DNA of 64,000 bases from an uncultured Candidatus Saccharibacteria bacterium (GTDB lineage: Bacteria; Patescibacteriota; Saccharimonadia; CAILAD01; JADZBC01): contig CAZCAO010000002.1 of NCBI GenBank assembly GCA_964496815.1, positions 6,265 through 70,264 of the forward strand, in the 5' to 3' direction. The translations under genes and the position numbers were made by a program. How positions within the stretch are numbered: position 1 is the first letter of the stretch; every line of letters begins with the position of its first letter. Positions 9,691 to 33,498 of this stretch are shown piece by piece. Under the pieces are notes generated by a model. The model searched no databases, was not told the DNA's origin, and worked only from the letters and a program-made list of their open reading frames with translations.

Positions 9691-10296
9691 CTAACCCCTT
9701 ACCATTACTAAGCTTTTTTTCGGTCCTGGTACAGCGCCTCGTACGACAAGAATATTGTTTTCAACATCAATTTCCATAACCTTGAGATTCTTAACAGTCA
9801 CAGCCTTATGGCCCATTTGACCAGCCATTTTCTGGCCTTTGAAGACGTGCTGAGGATACCCTGCGCCAATAGAGCCAGGCGCACGATGGTTATGGCTACC
9901 ATGCGTCATCGGGCCACGTGCAAAGTTATGACGCTTAATTGTTCCGGCGAAACCTTTGCCCTTAGAAACAGCACTTACTGTTATGCTGTCACCGACGGCA
10001 AAAACATCGGCTTTAAGCTCATCACCAACGGTCATTTCTGGCTGATCGCCATCGACGCGATATTCGGTCAAGAAACGGCTATTGGCCTTGGCTGGCTTGA
10101 GGTGCCCAGCCTGTGGCTTAGCTTGGTGCTTGGCTTCTCCAAACCCAATCTGTACAGCACTATAGCCATCTCGCTCCACGCTTTTGAGTTGAGTAATCAC
10201 ACACGGACCAGCCTCCAGTACCGTTACTGGAGTCATTACACCTGATTCATCAAAAATCTGTGTCATGCCGATCTTTTTTGCAAGCAATGCTTTCAC
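9691..10296 (-). CDS. rplC: 50S ribosomal protein L3
   Basis: GTG start with AAGGAA 7 nt upstream. L3 N-terminus ([14 protein letters not shown]). Confidence 0.95.
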
Positions 10297-10486: not shown

Positions 10487-10813
10487 CTATGCCCGACGAA
10501 GTTCAATCAGAAGGCCCCTCCGAACCATTCTAAGCGCTATAATTCCGAGAAAACCACCGACGAGATAGGATATTGCCCACCAAGGGTTTTGAACGAATAT
10601 ACGCCATTCCAGGATGGCAGGCAAAAGTGCAAAGCAGGCAGATATCATGCCTAAAGCTCTACCCTGAACATAAAGCTTACTTGAATTTAATCGCTGGCTG
10701 CGATTACGCTTGCGAACCTCGAGAAGCAGCAATCCAACCCTAATGTTCAAATAGGTCAAAAAGGGCAATGGCAGTAAGCTCACCCAGAAAGCCGGTGTCG
10801 GTGCAAAGTCCAT
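10487..10813 (-). CDS. hypothetical small membrane protein (about 3 TM segments)
   Basis: 108-aa hydrophobic ORF abutting the next ORF. No family recognised. Confidence 0.5.
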   Translation of the reverse strand: MDFAPTPAFWVSLLPLPFLTYLNIRVGLLLLEVRKRNRSQRLNSSKLYVQGRALGMISACFALLPAILEWRIFVQNPWWAISYLVGGFLGIIALRMVRRGLLIELRRA

Positions 10814-10815
10814 AA

Positions 10816-11079
10816 CTAAAGTGTAATCGCAATTGTTAAGCCAATGCCAGTGAATACAAGCCCAAGAAGCGCCCCGACTACCAAGAGCGCATATTCAATC
10901 TTTCGATCAATCCTAAGTGCATCTACCTTAGAGAATATAAAGCCCAAGATTACCCCAATCGGTACCACCCGGTGCCCATTCACCGATATCCATGTAAGCC
11001 CCAAGATGAGGTAAAGGCCTGCTTTTACCAAAAAGGCAAAATCAGACTCATAATATCGTTTACTAACTTTATTCTTCAT
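10816..11079 (-). CDS. hypothetical small membrane protein (2-3 TM segments)
   Basis: 87-aa hydrophobic ORF with a weak SD. No family recognised. Confidence 0.45.
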   Translation of the reverse strand: MKNKVSKRYYESDFAFLVKAGLYLILGLTWISVNGHRVVPIGVILGFIFSKVDALRIDRKIEYALLVVGALLGLVFTGIGLTIAITL

Positions 11080-11129
11080 TACTCTATTTAAGCATAAAAA
11101 CTATTTTGAGTCGAAGAAAAAATTGCCCT

Positions 11130-11672
11130 GAAACGGAAGAAGACCCTGAACAGAGTTCAAGGTCTTGTATGGGTGCGGCGGGGTGGCCCGGAGGCCACCC
11201 CGCCGACCTGCGCCATCCCAGGCGGCGGATCCCGGGAGGCGTCGTGCGCGGGGTGGGAGGCGGACCCACCCTACGCGACTGAGGGGGCGGGGCCCTCAGC
11301 ATGTGGCCGACTGCTTAGCAGACGGCGCGTAGCTCAGAGAACAATACTGGCAGCAAGCTGCAAGCGTAAATTCTCTGGCGACACCAGGAAGCAGTGGCCC
11401 TCAGGCCGTGGCTTTCGGTGTCATCCGACCTTACAGGACGTTGTAGTATGCTAGGAGAAACGGTGGCGTAACCGGAGAACCGGTGGACGCGCGCTCTTCC
11501 CTGCAGACTACTGCCCCTTTTGTGACCGAAGTCCCAATGAGGTCGGATTGCAATTCAATGGACTATATCTGAAGTAGTTGGCCCATACAATCAACCCTCG
11601 ATTTATCAAGAGCTGGTTGTATGGACCGAAGTCCACAAATATAAGGTGCAATTTGGCGCAAACCAAACTTAG
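11130..11672 (-). ncRNA. unclassified GC-rich structured RNA candidate
   Basis: At least 9 hairpins. Three have C(UNCG)G tetraloops only on the minus strand. There is a promoter-like site at 11679-11707 and a terminal hairpin at 11140-11166. No SD-led ORF is present. Confidence 0.45.
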
Positions 11673-11678
11673 ATACAC

Positions 11679-11707
11679 ACATTAACACAGCAAACTTCCT
11701 TTGTCTA
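11679..11707 (-). promoter_or_regulatory. candidate promoter of the structured RNA
   Basis: The minus strand reads TAGACA-17 nt (ending TGT)-TAATGT, an extended -10 type. Confidence 0.35.
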
Positions 11708-11728: not shown

Positions 11729-11757
11729 TTGACCTCTCAAACTATCTGTAGTATGAT
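11729..11757 (+). promoter_or_regulatory. sigma70-like promoter of ORF A1
   Basis: TTGACC-17 nt-TATGAT. It is back-to-back with the minus-strand promoter across the inverted repeat TTTTGT-ca-ACAAAA (11712-11725). Confidence 0.55.
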
Positions 11758-11806
11758 TTGTGCACATTAGGGCATAGCCTTAAGCACTTTGCAAACTTTT
11801 TGAAAT

Positions 11807-11852
11807 TGTGGCCGGTGAATTGCAGATACAGTCTGCGGCTCACCGAGCCACA
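11807..11852 (+). promoter_or_regulatory. long imperfect hairpin in the A1 5' leader
   Basis: Pairing is TGTGGC/GCCACA plus CGGTGA/TCACCG plus GCAG/CTGC, with the loop ATACAGT. It ends 10 nt before the AGGAGG SD. Confidence 0.4.
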
Positions 11853-11874
11853 AACTTCGAAAGGAGGTTCGGTC

Positions 11875-12189
11875 ATGGTTGAGTTCCAACCCCTAGCATT
11901 CAGCCTCCACAGAATGGGGGAACGCCTCGAACTGAGCATTCCCAACCGTCCCTCCTACGACCTTACCTGGGTCGAGCGAGCAATGGCAGGAATCACCCCT
12001 GCACCGTCTGTGAGTCAACAGTCGGGAGAGAAGAGTCCCATCTTCATCCTGACGCTCCCCTCTCCCACGAGAGAAGACCTCGAGGCTCTGCGCCTCAAGG
12101 TTCGAGCGAGGCTCCAGGAGATCTCGGATCAGCGACCCGCGTTCGAGCCTCCCTACCCCAAAGGAAAGCCTTTCGCACATACCGCCTGA
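11875..12189 (+). CDS. hypothetical protein A1 (104 aa), no recognised family
   Basis: The ATG is preceded by AAAGGAGG with 8-nt spacing. Codons are GC3-rich. The stop lies inside a terminator stem. Confidence 0.6.
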   Translation: MVEFQPLAFSLHRMGERLELSIPNRPSYDLTWVERAMAGITPAPSVSQQSGEKSPIFILTLPSPTREDLEALRLKVRARLQEISDQRPAFEPPYPKGKPFAHTA

Positions 12190-12293: not shown

Positions 12294-12311
12294 TCTCTGA
12301 GTAAAGACATG

Positions 12312-12338
12312 GCCCGCCCGAGACAACCCCGGGCGGGC
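12312..12338 (-). terminator. GC-rich hairpin after A2
   Basis: A 9-bp stem GCCCGCCCG/CGGGCGGGC with a 9-nt loop, 25 nt downstream of the A2 stop on the minus strand. Confidence 0.45.
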
Positions 12339-12362
12339 ATTGCGAACACTAAAAAACTACGG

Positions 12363-12671
12363 CTACTGGTCCGAGAACTCAACACGAACGTCGCTGGCAT
12401 CTTCGATCCTCGGATCCCGGAGGTGCTGCTTAAACCTCGTCTTGATGAGCTCACGCAGTTCAGGGTCTCGTGGAGCAAACCTTACCACGACCTTCCACTT
12501 GATCCTCTTCGGCATAGCCCCGGCGGGCATGAGTTTGACCTGTTTTACTTGCAGTCGTGACTCACCGTTCAGGAGGGTCTTCATGAGCCTTGTGTAGCTC
12601 TCCTGGGCCCCCTGGAGACCCCAGTTCTCAACATCTCGCTTAAGACGAGATGAGTGAATCGTGATTTCCAC
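12363..12671 (-). CDS. hypothetical basic protein A2 (102 aa), no recognised family
   Basis: GTG start with AGGAGA 7 nt upstream. The protein is Lys/Arg-rich and its codons lean GC3. Confidence 0.55.
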   Translation of the reverse strand: MEITIHSSRLKRDVENWGLQGAQESYTRLMKTLLNGESRLQVKQVKLMPAGAMPKRIKWKVVVRFAPRDPELRELIKTRFKQHLRDPRIEDASDVRVEFSDQ

Positions 12672-12728: not shown

Positions 12729-12818
12729 TACACAAGTTCTAGACTCTTATGCTTGGCTCAAAGCATCACTATACGCTACTCTAAAGTTGTCACCCTGCGA
12801 CGACCAAAGGAGACAGTT

Positions 12819-13187
12819 GTGACACCCAAAGGAACGTTCCGCCTCTTTCGCATCGTCATCCAGGACGACAACGAACTGTGGCTGATCGAACTGCCGCCTG
12901 AGGACTCTGACACGATCGGGGACGTTAGCATCCTCGTGATGCTCTCAGGACTATTCAGCGATGAGCTCGACTACGACGAGGAGGCCTACCCAGAAGGCCC
13001 CATCATCATCTACGAGCCAGACGACGTGCCAACCGAGGACTTTCCAGAGGCCGATTCCTGCGCTTTTGTGGTCTGCCTAACCAGACAAGCAACCCTCGAA
13101 GACGCAGATCGCGTCCAAGAGTCGCTGCTCGCCTGGCTGAAGGCCAACAACGAGCAGGCGCAGATCGTCATCGAGAACCCCGTCTGA
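12819..13187 (+). CDS. hypothetical highly acidic protein A3 (122 aa), no recognised family
   Basis: GTG start 5 nt after AAAGGAGA. GC3 is 37/50 in the first 50 codons (hand count). The protein has about 28 Asp/Glu versus about 6 Lys/Arg (hand count). Confidence 0.65.
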   Translation: MTPKGTFRLFRIVIQDDNELWLIELPPEDSDTIGDVSILVMLSGLFSDELDYDEEAYPEGPIIIYEPDDVPTEDFPEADSCAFVVCLTRQATLEDADRVQESLLAWLKANNEQAQIVIENPV

Positions 13188-13352: not shown

Positions 13353-13673
13353 CTACATTTTAATTTCGATATCCACACCGGCTGGAAGATTAAGATTCAT
13401 AAGTGAATCAATCGTCTTCGGAGTTGGTTCAGTAATATCGATTAAACGTTTGTGTGTCCGCATCTCGAACTGTTCACGAGCGTCTTTGAACACATGTGGG
13501 CTCGATAGAACCGTGAATTTGTTCTTGTCAGTTGGTAGTGGTACTGGGCCCACTACCTGAGCACCGGTGCGCACGGCAGTATCCAAAATCTGCTTAGCAG
13601 ACTGGTCGATAATCTTACTGTCGTACGCCTTGAGGCGAATGCGGATACGTTGTTTGTTTGCTTGTTCTGGCAT
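13353..13673 (-). CDS. rpsJ: 30S ribosomal protein S10
   Basis: [11 protein letters not shown]...GPVPLPT motifs. Confidence 0.95.
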
Positions 13674-13697: not shown

Positions 13698-14882
13698 TTA
13701 CTTGTTAATCTTTGTTACAACACCAGCGCCTACGGTTCGGCCACCTTCACGAATTGCGAAGCGGAGACCTTCTTCCATGGCGATTGGAGCGATAAGCTTA
13801 ACTTTCATTTTAATGTTATCGCCTGGCATAACCATCTCTACGCCGTCTGGCAATGTAACTTCACCGGTTACGTCGGTTGTTCGGATGTAGAACTGAGGCT
13901 TGTAGCCCTTGAAGAATGGAGTATGGCGACCGCCCTCTTCCTTCTTAAGAACGTATACTTCAGAATCAAACTCGGTGTGAGGAGTAATTGAACCTGGCTT
14001 GGCCAAAACCTGACCTCGCTCAATGTCGGTTCGTTCAATACCACGTAAGAGCAAGCCTACGTTATCACCAGCACGACCTTCGTCGAGAAGCTTCTTGAAC
14101 ATCTCTACACCAGTTACCGTAGTTTTCTTGGTGTCATGCAAACCAACGATTTCTACTTCTTCACCAACGTTTACGATACCCTGTTCGATTCGTCCGGTAG
14201 CTACCGTACCACGACCTTTGATCGAGAATACGTCTTCGATTGGCATAAGGAAAGGCTTATCGATTTCGCGCTTTGGCTCTGGAATACTTTCATCCATTGC
14301 CTTCACAAGCTCCATAATAGAGTCTTCAGCAGCAGCGTCACCTTCGAGAGCTTTGAGAGCAGAGCCCTTGATGATAGGAGCGTTTTCGTCGTAACCGTTC
14401 TTTTCAAGAAGTTCGCGGATTTCGATTTCAACAAGCTCTGCAAGCTCTGGGTCTGCCATGTCCATCTTGTTCATATAGACAAGAATGTATGGTACACCAA
14501 CCTGGCGAGCCAAGAGAACGTGCTCGCGGGTCTGTGGCATTGGGCCGTCAGCAGCAGATACTACCAATACAGCGCCATCAATCTGAGCAGCACCAGTAAT
14601 CATGTTCTTAACGTAGTCAGCATGACCAGGCATATCTACGTGAGCGTAGTGTCGCTTTTCACTTTCGTATTCCTGATGAGAAGTTGCGATAGTAATACCA
14701 CGCTCCCGCTCTTCTGGGGCTTTGTCGATTTCATCGTAGTTAATTGGCTTGTTTACTGCGCTAGGAAGCTTCTTAGCCAATACATGAGTAATCGCAGCGG
14801 TAAGAGTTGTCTTACCGTGATCTACGTGACCCATAGTACCGACGTTTACGTGCGGCTTACTGCGGTCGAATTGTTCTGCCAT
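13698..14882 (-). CDS. tuf: elongation factor Tu
   Basis: Trimmed to the Met preceded by AGGAGA ([26 protein letters not shown]). Confidence 0.95.
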
Positions 14883-14964
14883 ATATTCTCCTTGTTGAAC
14901 GTTGTTAAGTTTATAAGCGCTTAGCAAAGACACATAAAAATATGCCTAGGCCTTAGACTTTTCG

Positions 14965-14993
14965 ATTATAGGTAAAAACTGCCCTAATGTAAA
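14965..14993 (-). promoter_or_regulatory. sigma70-like promoter of tuf-rpsJ
   Basis: The minus strand reads TTTACA-17 nt-TATAAT, about 85 nt upstream of the tuf start. Confidence 0.55.
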
Positions 14994-15009
14994 GACTTTT
15001 AAAGCAGAA

Positions 15010-15033
15010 CGCCCCCGGCAAAAGCTAGGGGCG
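15010..15033 (-). terminator. hairpin closing insert B
   Basis: CGCCCC/GGGGCG stem plus an inner 3 bp. On the minus strand it is followed by GUUCUGCUUU. Confidence 0.4.
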
Positions 15034-15187
15034 CTGTGTGCATGGAGCCTGGACTCGGGATCTCCTCAGGCGGAGATGTCCAGGGCTTACCCATGACTAT
15101 AGCTGCTCCAGGCAGCCTGCGTCTCCCGAAATCTCGTAACACCTGTGAGGTGTTAGCACGAGACACGACGCGCGTACGTAGAGACCA

Positions 15188-15439
15188 TTACGTACACCAC
15201 CCACAATTTGGTTCCTTACGGGCCTTAAGAAGATCTCTGACCCCGATGATACGAACCGTCCAGATGCCTCCGGACTCCTGATTTCTCAGGACATGTGGTG
15301 TTGCAATACAGCCTAACTTCTTCACTTGATCAACTTCGGCGCTGGCCTGAAGCAGCCATGAAGTGAGTTCACGCGGCGGCGCGGAACGATGAAGATTTTT
15401 GGTAGAACAGGTGATGTGCTGCAGCACGCCTGCTTTCAT
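15188..15439 (-). CDS. doubtful 83-aa ORF in insert B
   Basis: The only ORF of 60 aa or more that lies mostly clear of the 3' hairpin cluster (its stop overlaps 15174-15195). It has no convincing SD, mixed codon bias and no recognised family. Confidence 0.25.
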   Translation of the reverse strand: MKAGVLQHITCSTKNLHRSAPPRELTSWLLQASAEVDQVKKLGCIATPHVLRNQESGGIWTVRIIGVRDLLKARKEPNCGWCT

Positions 15440-15540
15440 TGCTTCTACCGAGTCTCAACTAACCCAGCTCCACAACTACCACCTACTATTAGGCTATTTG
15501 CAAGAAAGATCCTATCGATCTCAGAACAAATCATAACCTA

Positions 15541-15577
15541 ACAAAGAGCCTTTGTCAATCTGACAAAGGCTCTTTGT
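15541..15577 (-). terminator. terminator after fusA
   Basis: A perfect 17-bp inverted repeat ACAAAGAGCCTTTGTCA-atc-TGACAAAGGCTCTTTGT, 20 nt after the fusA stop. Confidence 0.7.
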
Positions 15578-15597
15578 GTCTTAGTAGCGAAGGGTGT

Positions 15598-17706
15598 TTA
15601 TCGACCCTCTTCGACGGCCGCCTGGCGCTTGCCAATCAGCTCGTCGGCGACGTTTCGTGGCACCTCGGCGTAGTGATCAAACTCCATGGCATAACTGGCG
15701 CGTCCTTGGGTCATGGAACGCAAACTCGTAGCATACCCAAACATACCTGATAGCGGTACGAACGAGCTGATAATCTTAGCTCCGCTGCGATCTTCCATCT
15801 TTTCAACACGACCACGCTTGGCGTTGATGTCGCCAATCACATCGCCCATGAAGTCTTCCGGGGTCGTAATCTCTACTCGCATAACAGGCTCGAGAATTAC
15901 TGGATCGGCCTGGCGGACACCAGCCTGCAGGGCCATAGAGCCAGCAATTTTGAAGGCGAGCTCCGAGGAGTCTACATCATGATAGCTACCATCATATAGC
16001 TTGGCGTGAATATCGACCACTGGATAGCCGGCCAGAACACCATTACCCATAGCTTCACGAATGCCTTCCTCGACCGGCTTAATATACTCACGTGGGACTG
16101 CACCGCCAACGATGGCATTTTCAAACTCAAAGGTTTTGCGTTCTTCATCTTCCTCAGAATGCACTAATGGACTTAGCTCAAGCCAGACATGACCATACTG
16201 ACCGCGACCACCTGACTGACGAACGAATTTGCCCTCAATCTGAGTTGTTTTGCGAATTGTTTCACGATAAGCCACCTGCGGTCGGCCGACGTTTGCTTCA
16301 ACCTTGAATTCTCGCTTCATACGATCAACAATCACATCAAGATGCAGCTCACCCATACCATCAATGATGGTCTGCCCGCTGTCTTCATCTGAATGAACGC
16401 GGAATGTTGGGTCTTCTTCGGCCAAACGAGACAGTGCTATGCCCATCTTTTCTTGGTCGGCCTTGGTCTTTGGTTCAATTGCAATCGAAATTACTGGCTC
16501 TGGGAAGGTAATCGACTCAAGCATAACCGGATGAGCCGGATCGCAAATGGTATGGCCAGTTATGGTGTTCTTGAGTCCAACTGCAGCGGCAATCTCACCG
16601 GCATAAACTTCATTCACTTCCTCGCGGTTATTGGCATGCATACGCACAATTCGACCGACGCGCTCTTTTTCCCCCGTAGAGGCATTGAGGATGTAGCTTC
16701 CGCTCTTCAAAACCCCAGAATAGACGCGGAAGAAAGCTAGTTTACCTACGAATGGATCGGTAGCAATCTTGAACGCGAGACCAGCAAATGGCGCAGTGTC
16801 GCTCACTTCGAGAAGTTTGTCCTCGCCAGTTTTGATGTCTTTGCCAAGCGGAGCAGTGATATCGAGCGGATTAGGCAAATAGTCCACTACTGCATCTAGA
16901 AGCTTCTCAACAATCACACCGCGTCCATCACCACCGGAAACAACGTAAAACTGTCCACTCAATACTGATTTGCGAATTGCGGTCTTTACTTCTTCAAGGC
17001 TAAGTTCTTTGCCTTCAAGGTATTTCTCCATAATTTCATCATCACTCTCCACCGCTGCCTCTACGAGATGCTGACGATAGTGAGCGACCTTTTCCTTCAT
17101 GTCTTCAGGAATGTCGATTTCTTTTAGTTCTTTGTCGGTATAATCCTTATACTCATAGGCCTTCATCTCTACAAGATCGATCAAGCCATTAATGCCCTGC
17201 TCAAAACCAATCGGGAGATGAATCGGATAAGCTCGCTTGCTTAGGCGTTCATGAATAGAGTCGAGTGATTTATAAAAATCACCGCCAGTTTGATTGATCT
17301 TGTTAATAAAGCAAATTCGAGGCACGCCATATTTGTCGGCTTGTCGCCACACCGTCTCACTCTGTGGCTCTACACCCATCTTGCCATCGAATACCGTCAC
17401 CGCGCCGTCTAGGACACGAAGTGATCGCTCAACTTCAACAGTAAAGTCGATATGCCCTGGCGTATCAATGATATTGATACGCTTTTCTTTCCAGAAACAC
17501 GTGGTGGCTGCTGAGGTAATCGTAATACCGCGCTCCTGCTCTTGCTCCATCCAGTCCATAGTTGCAGCACCTTCATGCACTTCACCAATCTTATGAACCC
17601 TACCGGTGCGGTAAAGGATACCTTCGGTTACGGTAGTTTTGCCTGCATCGATGTGGGCAATGATACCGATATTACGTGTATTTTCTAGTGAGTATTCGCG
17701 AGCCAT
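15598..17706 (-). CDS. fusA: elongation factor G
   Basis: 702-aa protein with the [10 protein letters not shown]-domain and an EF-G domain sequence. Confidence 0.95.
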
Positions 17707-33372: not shown

Positions 33373-33414
33373 CCAATGAAAAGCACCTACGTGACATTGG
33401 GTGCTTTTCATTGG
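33373..33414 (-). terminator. 15-bp hairpin immediately 3' of tRNA-Leu
   Basis: CCAATGAAAAGCACC-12 nt-GGTGCTTTTCATTGG. The stem begins at the tRNA CCA end. Confidence 0.5.
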
Positions 33415-33498
33415 TGCGGATGAAAGGACTCGAACCTTCACGAGTATTACCTCACTAGCTCCTAAGGCTAGCGTGTCTACCAATTCCACCACATCCGC
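33412..33498 (-). tRNA. tRNA-Leu (anticodon UAG), CCA encoded
   Basis: Hand-folded cloverleaf: acceptor GCGGAUG/CAUCCGC, anticodon stem CUAGC/GCUAG with loop CUUAGGA, a long variable arm, and the T-loop GGUUCGAGUCC. Confidence 0.9.

Follow-up and report, generated by a model that had tools for sequence, protein, structure and literature searches.

What kind of element fills a hairpin-dense stretch of about 0.5 kb inside the str/S10/spc ribosomal gene cluster of an uncultured Candidatus Saccharibacteria bacterium? The stretch lies at 11130-11672 of a 64,000-nucleotide (nt) piece of chromosome (GenBank assembly GCA_964496815.1, contig CAZCAO010000002.1, positions 6,265 to 70,264; hereafter the window), directly upstream of a small membrane-protein gene that we call p87, and an original prediction made from the letters alone had taken it for a structured non-coding RNA of unknown class. 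Our analyses support that interpretation, through null results against Rfam and for the two shadow open reading frames (ORFs) of the region, through compensatory changes in stems and through strand-specific signals. Judged from its sequence, the region encodes, as a gene that stands by itself, a highly structured RNA of ~545 nt, read on the minus strand from ~11672 to ~11130, with both ends predicted from sequence signals.

The fold carries much of this answer. On the minus strand, 11130-11680 reaches a minimum free energy of -274.2 kcal/mol, against -195.9 +/- 6.4 in dinucleotide shuffles (z = -12.2), and 0 of 100 shuffles folded as well, whereas the plus strand reaches -251.9 kcal/mol with z = -6.3. 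The minus-strand assignment of the original prediction is therefore backed by the fold z-scores, and likewise by conserved G.U pairs and by a covariance model that scores 98 bits on the minus strand against 29 on the plus; among the members of the family described below, its scores are 80-126 bits for the RNA strand, and the opposite strand yields 17-33. All of the hairpins listed earlier were found again, as were three UNCG loops on the minus strand (UCCG at 11189-92, and UUCG within 11524-33 and within 11622-35). Some details needed correction. The 12 pairs at 11140-11166 are real, but the plus-strand C/A ‘mismatch’ counted there turns into a G.U pair once the minus strand is read. Although the hairpin 11622-11635 and the long stem 11583-11626 each exist, they share nt 11622-11626 and so cannot form at once, the long stem being better by ~11 kcal/mol in the window sequence. 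The G+C content, put at about 75%, is in fact 58.2% for 11130-11672, with 76% only in 11167-11330 and 51% in 11331-11672 (whole window, 48.5%). The predicted folds are chains of local hairpins, pseudoknots being outside the scope of the minimum-energy and RNAalifold folds that we used. In order of transcription, the parts of the putative gene are as follows.

11679..11707, minus strand: RNA promoter, with a -35 box TAGACA (11707-11702), a 17-nt spacer and an extended -10 element TGT-TAATGT (11687-11679)
11650..11669, minus strand: P1, the hairpin AGUUUGGU-UUGC-GCCAAAUU, predicted in every member
11640..11651, minus strand: conserved unpaired motif UUGCACCUUAUA (family consensus UUGYACCUUWUA)
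11559..11635, minus strand: P2, a three-way junction with an outer helix of segment 1 (11635-11630) and segment 4 (11564-11559), then P2a and a variable arm
11626-11579, minus strand: P2a, a long hairpin within P2 (segment 2 with segment 3)
11423..11548, minus strand: P3, a three-way junction closed by the helix AUCCGACC/GGUCGGAU (11548-11541 with 11430-11423)
11533-11524, minus strand: P3a, a short hairpin with a UUCG loop, usually UNCG-capped in the family
including 11484-11471, minus strand: P3b, a long hairpin within P3
11422-11380, minus strand: H4, in the variable central part, with a 6-base-pair (bp) closing helix (11380-85/11417-22)
11379-11332, minus strand: H5, in the variable central part
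11306..11326, minus strand: H6
11299-11279, minus strand: H7, 7-8 bp with the loop CCCCGCC
11276-11246, minus strand: H8, with the loop UCCGCCU
11241-11210, minus strand: H9, with the loop AUCCGCCG at 11230-11223
11171..11209, minus strand: H10, a 16-bp G+C hairpin with a UCCG tetraloop at 11192-11189 (listed earlier as 11176-11205, which is 12-13 bp of it)
11127..11166, minus strand: intrinsic terminator from the consensus scan, a 12-bp hairpin (11166-11140) with a U-rich tail (11139-11127)

The promoter that had been proposed, TAGACA-N17(TGT)-TAATGT, is present and is kept in all 11 homologous sequences, each of which has a -35 box TAGACA or TTTACA and an extended -10 of the form TGnTAnnAT, 17 nt apart, with a spacer sequence that is free to vary. 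In these 11 sequences the -10 ends 6-7 nt ahead of the conserved CUAAGUUUGG, and the start of the RNA is predicted near 11672 +/- 2. The 3' hairpin with its U-rich trailer, also pointed out earlier, was called as a minus-strand terminator by the consensus scan, and a hairpin with a U run closes every member, the runs being clearer in members related to L015 (the L015-type). By these signals the RNA is its own transcription unit, with a conserved promoter and terminator.

Covariation is strongest in the 5' domain. In an alignment of 11 sequences with a 39-pair structure (A5), 89.2% of pair cells hold standard pairs, compared with 28-44% when the partners are slid by 1-3 columns; 11 pairs (32 cells) have changed on both sides, and none of 500 shuffles comes up to the real alignment, be it in covariation score or in the fraction of cells paired. 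Its conserved G.U pairs, for example at columns 6/25 and 66/98, would show as C/A mismatches on the other strand. P1 is paired in 96.6% of cells over the 11 sequences, with double changes at 2 pairs, and P2a, with 20 pairs, is 95% paired with double changes at 7. Single-sequence folds, done independently, agree on the 5' half. The strand UUGYACCUUWUA is nearly invariant in the 11 sequences and mostly unpaired in the single-sequence folds, part of it pairing in a few of them. Thus a check on the stems that had been suggested earlier, whether homologues carry compensatory changes, comes out in favour of the RNA for the 5' domain, H6 and the P3 closing helix.

The P2 junction has a second possible pairing, in which segment 1 joins segment 2 (11626-11622) as a UUCG-type hairpin, although in 10 of 10 members the nested fold is the more stable one, by 1-11 kcal/mol. 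Window-type members have the segments UGGAC/GUCCA/UGGRC/GUCCA, those of the L015-type GAGCC/GGCUC/GAGCC/GGCUC, and since all four change together between subgroups, the nested and the serial three-hairpin folds are both possible in all members; this four-segment pairing may be a folding pathway or a switch. The architecture of P3 is likewise predicted independently in all members, with a closing helix of 9-15 bp in every one and sequences that differ (GGACUCC/GGAGUCC, GAGCUCC/GGAGCUC, GGAUUCC/GGAAUCC, UGAGUUUC/GGAAACUCA). A P3 covariance model built from L015-type members did not recover the window-type P3 domains, even with filters off, so that covariation of P3 across subgroups comes from single-sequence folds only; the MAFFT alignments of P3 and H10 were out of register between subgroups and were therefore left out of the pair counts.

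The 3' half is built of long G+C hairpins whose number and order vary by species, and this array closes with a UNCG-capped hairpin. The region of H4 and H5 (11332..11422) is replaced by other helices elsewhere, L013 and L115 having a different module, and in H6 6 of 9 pairs are doubly compensated among the window, L012, L115 and L013. A hairpin like H10, of 10-18 bp with a UNCG loop, directly precedes the terminator in 9 of 10 members, its stem sequence differing among them, and one compensatory pair is seen in H10 within the window subgroup. Within that subgroup H7-H10 are nearly invariant in stem and loop, which for H7-H9 is as expected for sequence-specific contacts. The common feature of the array is the motif CCGCC, found at the apex of 1-3 hairpins per RNA in the forms AUCCGCCG, GUCCGCCA, UCCGCCU, CCCCGCC or AUUCCGCC. 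The 10 members have 21 such loops between them, where dinucleotide shuffles give 0.45 +/- 0.59 (at most 2 in 40 shuffles), and their density of ~3.5/kb inside the RNA compares with ~0.1/kb in ~680 kb of other Saccharibacteria DNA, a ~33-fold difference.

How widespread is this RNA? Relatives of p87 and of p104, the gene on its other side, led us to loci with the same arrangement, and a search with nhmmer and a covariance model yielded ~10 distinct homologues including the window (the others being L012, L013 (= L002), L014, L015, L016, L115, L116/L117, L120 and L121/L122), all between rpsJ and the p87 that precedes rplC. The extracted sequences, which start shortly before P1 and run as far as the p87 promoter region, are 580-714 nt long, and the RNA itself measures 545-690 nt across the family; a further contig, L001, is identical to the window and contributed no variation. 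Every member species has a p87 at least 82% identical to that of the window. Model R1 found no member in 66 more distant Saccharibacteria rpsJ-rplC loci, where the space upstream of p87 is taken by an ORF of 130-170 amino acids (aa), by other genes, or by ~70-140 nt only. A first pattern scan of metagenomes gave no match; the 9 loci from a second, at 13-22 bits with the 5'-domain model, and the 24 loci from a viral-contig scan with the 15-mer CCAAATTGCACCTTA, at 17 bits at best, were set aside as chance matches. In BLAST searches the region and its 20-kb surroundings were compared with phages, and the region with E. coli genomes; a 62-nt stretch of rplB was the sole match. On these comparisons the RNA family is real but narrow, and confined to one clade of Candidatus Saccharibacteria among the loci searched.

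At the RNA locus of L011 (3640-3870) G and C runs and a stretch of N give way to unrelated sequence, which has the look of a faulty assembly within the G+C-rich hairpin array. Arrays of this kind are possibly often broken in short-read assemblies, so that further family members could be hidden.

The setting of the RNA is itself unusual, considering that in the window rpsJ and rplC are ~3 kb apart and that the distance is filled by orphan ORFs. The genes of the locus, and the promoter that points away from the RNA, are these.

15598-17706, minus strand: fusA
13698-14933, minus strand: tuf
13353-13673, minus strand: rpsJ
12753-13187, plus strand: ORF p144/122
12363-12671, minus strand: ORF p102
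11875-12189, plus strand: ORF p104, with a good GGAGG ribosome-binding site
11729..11757, plus strand: divergent promoter TTGACC-N17-TATGAT for p104, from the consensus scan, standing back to back with the RNA promoter
10816-11079, minus strand: ORF p87, membrane protein
10487-10813, minus strand: ORF p108, membrane protein
9691-10296, minus strand: rplC, followed by rplD and the rest of the cluster
11875-12189 (plus strand) in the window, 2904-3266 in L012, 2883-3176 in L015 and 2829-3149 in L016: divergent genes, on the strand opposite to the RNA in each

The RNA thus lies between p104 and p87, co-oriented with p87 and p108 and directly upstream of both. The small proteins p144/122, p102, p104, p87 and p108 belong to no Pfam, NCBIfam, PHROGs or PADLOC family. 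For p87, a protein of 83-95 aa with the motif RIDRKIEYALLVVGAL, a back-translated search confirmed 228 loci, and the best 80 of these, which we examined, are nearly all titled Candidatus Saccharibacteria, Saccharimonadia or Patescibacteria; p87 stands between rpsJ and rplC in essentially all of the Saccharimonadia loci among them. The content of the gap from rpsJ to p87, on the other hand, varies strongly among Saccharibacteria. Members of the clade all keep the RNA beside p87, while the genes on its other side change with the species. The description of the RNA as ‘carried by the insert’ therefore holds in so far as the rpsJ-p87 gap is variable, and needs refining in that the RNA is constant next to p87.

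The divergent gene may belong to the p104 family, to a family that we call ‘MHVR’, or encode a 106-aa protein or others, and all members keep the -10 region of its promoter and the GTCAA that reads TTGAC on the opposite strand, whatever gene follows. These divergent proteins all end in a C-terminal (F/W)EPP motif. A common protein partner among them was considered and rejected, the p104-type and MHVR-type sharing only (F/W)EPP (hhalign probability 0.2%), and profile comparison of the divergent-gene families found no homology beyond those six residues. Two smaller observations belong to this side of the locus. The 5' untranslated region of p104 (11758-11874, plus strand) holds a stretch of ~50 nt, CACATTAGGGCATAGCCTTAAGCACTTTGCAAA, able to form a small hairpin, which is conserved in the window, L012/L006 and L013 and is better kept than the adjoining coding sequence. 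Further on, 12312-12338 (minus strand) forms a perfect 12-bp G+C hairpin, GCCCGCCCGGGG-TTG-TCTCGGGCGGGC, with no U tail, at the start of a plus-strand ORF (12309-12560).

The highly variable content of the rpsJ-p87 gap and the orphan ORFs around the RNA, together with a weak resemblance to sRNA-Xcc1, an integron-linked small RNA (sRNA) model (18 bits, E = 4.6), could suggest that there is no functional RNA here, and that we are looking at DNA-level palindromes, or at a mobile-insert or decayed-gene remnant in a recombination hot spot. We regard this as very improbable. The signal is strand-asymmetric and includes conserved G.U pairs, promoter and terminator are conserved, and compensatory changes extend over ~10 species. 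No second copy of the RNA was found in the 64-kb window, a tandem array (TIGR-like or type III antitoxin-like) was rejected for want of a periodic repeat, and the phage, plasmid-free E. coli, viral and metagenome collections gave no match. Nor does a gene in decay fit. The ORFs 11173..11454 and 11084..11302, called shadows earlier, have no Pfam match and no convincing homologue: for a 93-aa shadow ORF none was found among 5.8 billion proteins, and a 72-aa one gave two weak multi-stretch matches (E = 1e-5 and 1e-3). The decayed-gene test that had been proposed thus gave no convincing protein homology in these two frames, which were the frames tested, a six-frame search not being part of it; moreover, frame-breaking indels of 1 and 2 nt separate the window from its close relative L006.

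Since the RNA is co-oriented with p87 and immediately upstream of it, with its terminator 60 nt before the p87 start and in a ribosomal-protein cluster, one might instead read it as a cis-acting leader or attenuator of a p87-p108-rplC operon, in which the terminator 11166-11140 would be regulated, for example by sensing a ribosomal protein. What bears on this lies between the terminator and p87.

11086..11094, minus strand: extended -10-like element TGCTTAAAT, outside the RNA and 6 nt before the p87 ATG

The element is part of a conserved CTTCGAC-N18-TGCTTAAAT downstream of the RNA. In many RNA-less Saccharibacteria elements of the form TGnTAnnnT stand mostly ~6-12 nt before the p87 start, often after the terminator of the preceding gene, so that the order terminator, TGnTAnnnT, ATG is found there as well. 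The p87 start region (window 11080-11110; L019-L081) has no clear Shine-Dalgarno sequence. These features imply that p87 has its own promoter and suggest that its mRNA is leaderless or nearly so, which argues against a leader or attenuator. No antiterminator pairing that would compete with the terminator stem appears in the folds, and to our knowledge 545-690 nt far exceeds the known ribosomal-protein leaders. We consider a leader improbable.

If the region is an RNA gene of its own, does it belong to a described family? We compared the window and 23 related loci with Rfam, at gathering score and at E <= 10. The cmscan that had been suggested as a check names nothing for the RNA, and the whole window yields only tRNA; Rfam 15 at gathering score gave nothing for 18 related loci, and at E <= 10, a cut which over 4227 families would hide matches below ~20-25 bits, nothing but sub-threshold, chance-level matches came up for the window region and for five members besides. 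The best of them, sX13 on the 3' hairpins of L122, reached 27.1 bits (E = 0.11; gathering 50), and none is listed for the window sequence. ARAGORN found no tmRNA, only tRNA-Leu at 33412-33498, and there was no Rfam match to tmRNA; RF01071 (OLE) had no match either, p87 and p108 being without a Pfam or NCBIfam family. Our literature searches turned up no lineage-specific regulatory or structural RNA described for Saccharibacteria or Patescibacteria. On the evidence of these searches this is a new RNA family, with no match to described families.

RNase P RNAs of the Candidate Phyla Radiation (CPR) can score under Rfam thresholds and are known to escape its models (PMC8172020), which leaves a thought for a highly diverged housekeeping RNA (RNase P RNA, tmRNA, signal recognition particle RNA or 6S RNA) that those models have missed. 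In the window region and five members none of the four was matched at E <= 10; RNase P RNA (RF00010/RF00011) was not listed for these six, where a very weak match could hide below ~20-25 bits. The stretch GGAAGAGCGC of window-type members recalls GGUAAGAGCGC in E. coli RNase P RNA; this GAGCGC stretch, however, is limited to one subgroup and is absent from L015-type members. Inspecting the alignments by eye, we saw no RNase P core sequences (GGAAAGUCC of P4; ACAGAA..GGCUUA) among the family-conserved stretches, which are UUGYACCUUWUA, AAUCAG/UUGAUUCUA, CAAAGGAG and GCCGCCU, with AAAGUCC in L012 only. As for an enclosure of the P1/P4 type, the minimum-energy and RNAalifold folds, which do not predict pseudoknots, give local domains only and no supported long-range pairing of P4 type. 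Considering also that the central helices differ between close species and that the other Saccharibacteria loci examined yield no match with the model, a housekeeping RNA seems scarcely credible.

A second conserved, strongly structured non-coding region of ~0.5 kb lies in the fusA-tuf gap (14934-15597, minus strand), between the fusA terminator and a conserved TTTACA-N17-TATAAT tuf promoter. Its minimum free energy is -265.6 kcal/mol, with z = -7.5 on the minus strand against -4.8 on the plus; L012 and L013 conserve it from end to end, RNAalifold of the three sequences gives 179 pairs, 42 with compensatory double changes, and it has no Rfam match. One of its hairpins bears an invariant CGCCGCC at the apex, much like the RNA upstream of p87. 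The idea that CCGCC-loop hairpins serve as cis sites elsewhere was dismissed, since none recurs outside these two RNAs.

What might the RNA do? Multivalent binding RNAs are stable, stand-alone transcripts that combine a varying number of hairpins carrying one motif with a conserved unpaired strand, such as the CsrB/RsmZ sponges with their GGA loops, and sX13, RsaE and RNAIII are riboregulators with C-rich loops. We tentatively favour the reading that the RNA upstream of p87 is a trans-acting, stable, multivalent binding RNA, while stopping short of calling it probable. The CCGCC loops and the unpaired UUGYACCUUWUA would be its contact surfaces, and the G+C stems with their UNCG caps would hold the loops out and resist nucleases. 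Its partner could be a protein, in which case the RNA would act as a decoy or sponge like CsrB/RsmZ, or it could instead be G-rich RNA sites, in which case it would be a C-rich-loop riboregulator like sX13 or RsaE. That hairpin number and position vary between species, as in sponge RNAs, speaks for multivalent binding, and so does the weak likeness of the L122 3' hairpins to sX13.

Several observations weigh against this reading. CCGCC is not complementary to the GGAGG Shine-Dalgarno sequence upstream of p104, sites complementary to the 5' motif are not in excess in the window (6 against 5.6 expected), and just two further CCGCC-loop hairpins occur in the 64 kb. No target or partner was found, and among the loci compared the distribution of the RNA is not strictly matched by that of any protein gene: RNA-less species have p87 and p108 too, and the divergent upstream genes are of unrelated families. 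The family, moreover, is narrow, with ~10 sequences, so that relatedness inflates some covariation measures, and the covariance model could not align the central part across subgroups.

The main rival is that of a large RNA with an architectural or catalytic role, comparable to OLE, ROOL or GOLLD; its loops would make tertiary contacts or hold a ribonucleoprotein, possibly with p87/p108. A length of 545-690 nt with very strong structure, and a 5' domain that has two multi-helix junctions and a conserved unpaired strand, are in keeping with such an RNA, as is the invariant CGCCGCC apex of the fusA-tuf gap RNA. The RNA is always directly upstream of, and co-oriented with, the two small membrane-protein genes, an adjacency to p87 that the ole-oapA arrangement parallels. 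However, Rfam matches it neither to OLE, ROOL or GOLLD nor to a ribozyme, its predicted folds are local hairpin chains with no supported long-range pairs, its middle is swapped helix by helix between species, which would be unusual for a catalytic core, and p87 is found in most Saccharimonadia without the RNA. We therefore think an architectural RNA unlikely, and continue to prefer multivalent binding.

It is doubtful, though conceivable, that the RNA upstream of p87 and that of the fusA-tuf gap represent a new class of large CCGCC-loop scaffold or regulator in the translation-gene superoperon of an episymbiotic CPR clade, with a common partner. If they do, possible roles are tuning the supply of ribosomes and translation factors, or dealing with a G+C-rich actinobacterial host, should this clade be host-associated as cultivated Saccharibacteria are. 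Bacterial structured RNAs of more than 500 nt are rare, and ribozymes, OLE, ROOL and GOLLD proved biochemically unusual. Saccharibacteria genomes are ~1 Mb or less, and that so small a genome keeps a non-coding gene of 0.55-0.7 kb, and perhaps a second one 3 kb off, speaks for a real function. Should the CCGCC loops prove to be binding sites, the RNA would offer a handle on an RNA-binding regulator or regulon in genetically hard organisms, within the bounds set by a narrow distribution (~10 species-level sequences, one clade).

Comparison with known systems places the RNA nearer to some than to others. With the diverged CPR RNase P RNAs (PMC8172020) it shares the organism group, comparable size and G+C-rich helices, and the escape from default Rfam annotation; it differs in its serial local hairpins, with no P4 core sequences seen by inspection and no long-range pairing in the predicted folds, and in being absent from the other Saccharibacteria loci examined. 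Similar to OLE, ROOL, GOLLD and raiA it is lineage-restricted, highly structured and longer than 500 nt, and, just as ole precedes oapA, its gene comes immediately before one for a small multi-pass membrane protein, but it has no Rfam match to these families, p87/p108 also occur without it, and its central helices are poorly conserved. To sX13 (RF02232), RsaE and RNAIII it is alike in having several G+C hairpins with a short C-rich loop motif, followed by an intrinsic terminator. sX13, however, has 115 nt against 545-690 nt here, CCCC loops in place of CCGCC, and no large conserved 5' domain; it also comes from another phylum and its score is under gathering, so that the likeness is one of design and not of descent. 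The CsrB/RsmY/RsmZ RNAs offer a further parallel in their species-variable number of hairpins, each with the same short loop motif, on a stand-alone and strongly terminated transcript. Their loops are GGA where ours are CCGCC, the stems here are longer and richer in G+C, an extra 5' domain is present, and the RNA locus holds no co-distributed CsrA-like or other candidate partner protein. Taken together, by its design the RNA looks like a new version of the multi-loop binding RNAs, while its size and 5' domain leave room for a more distant kind.

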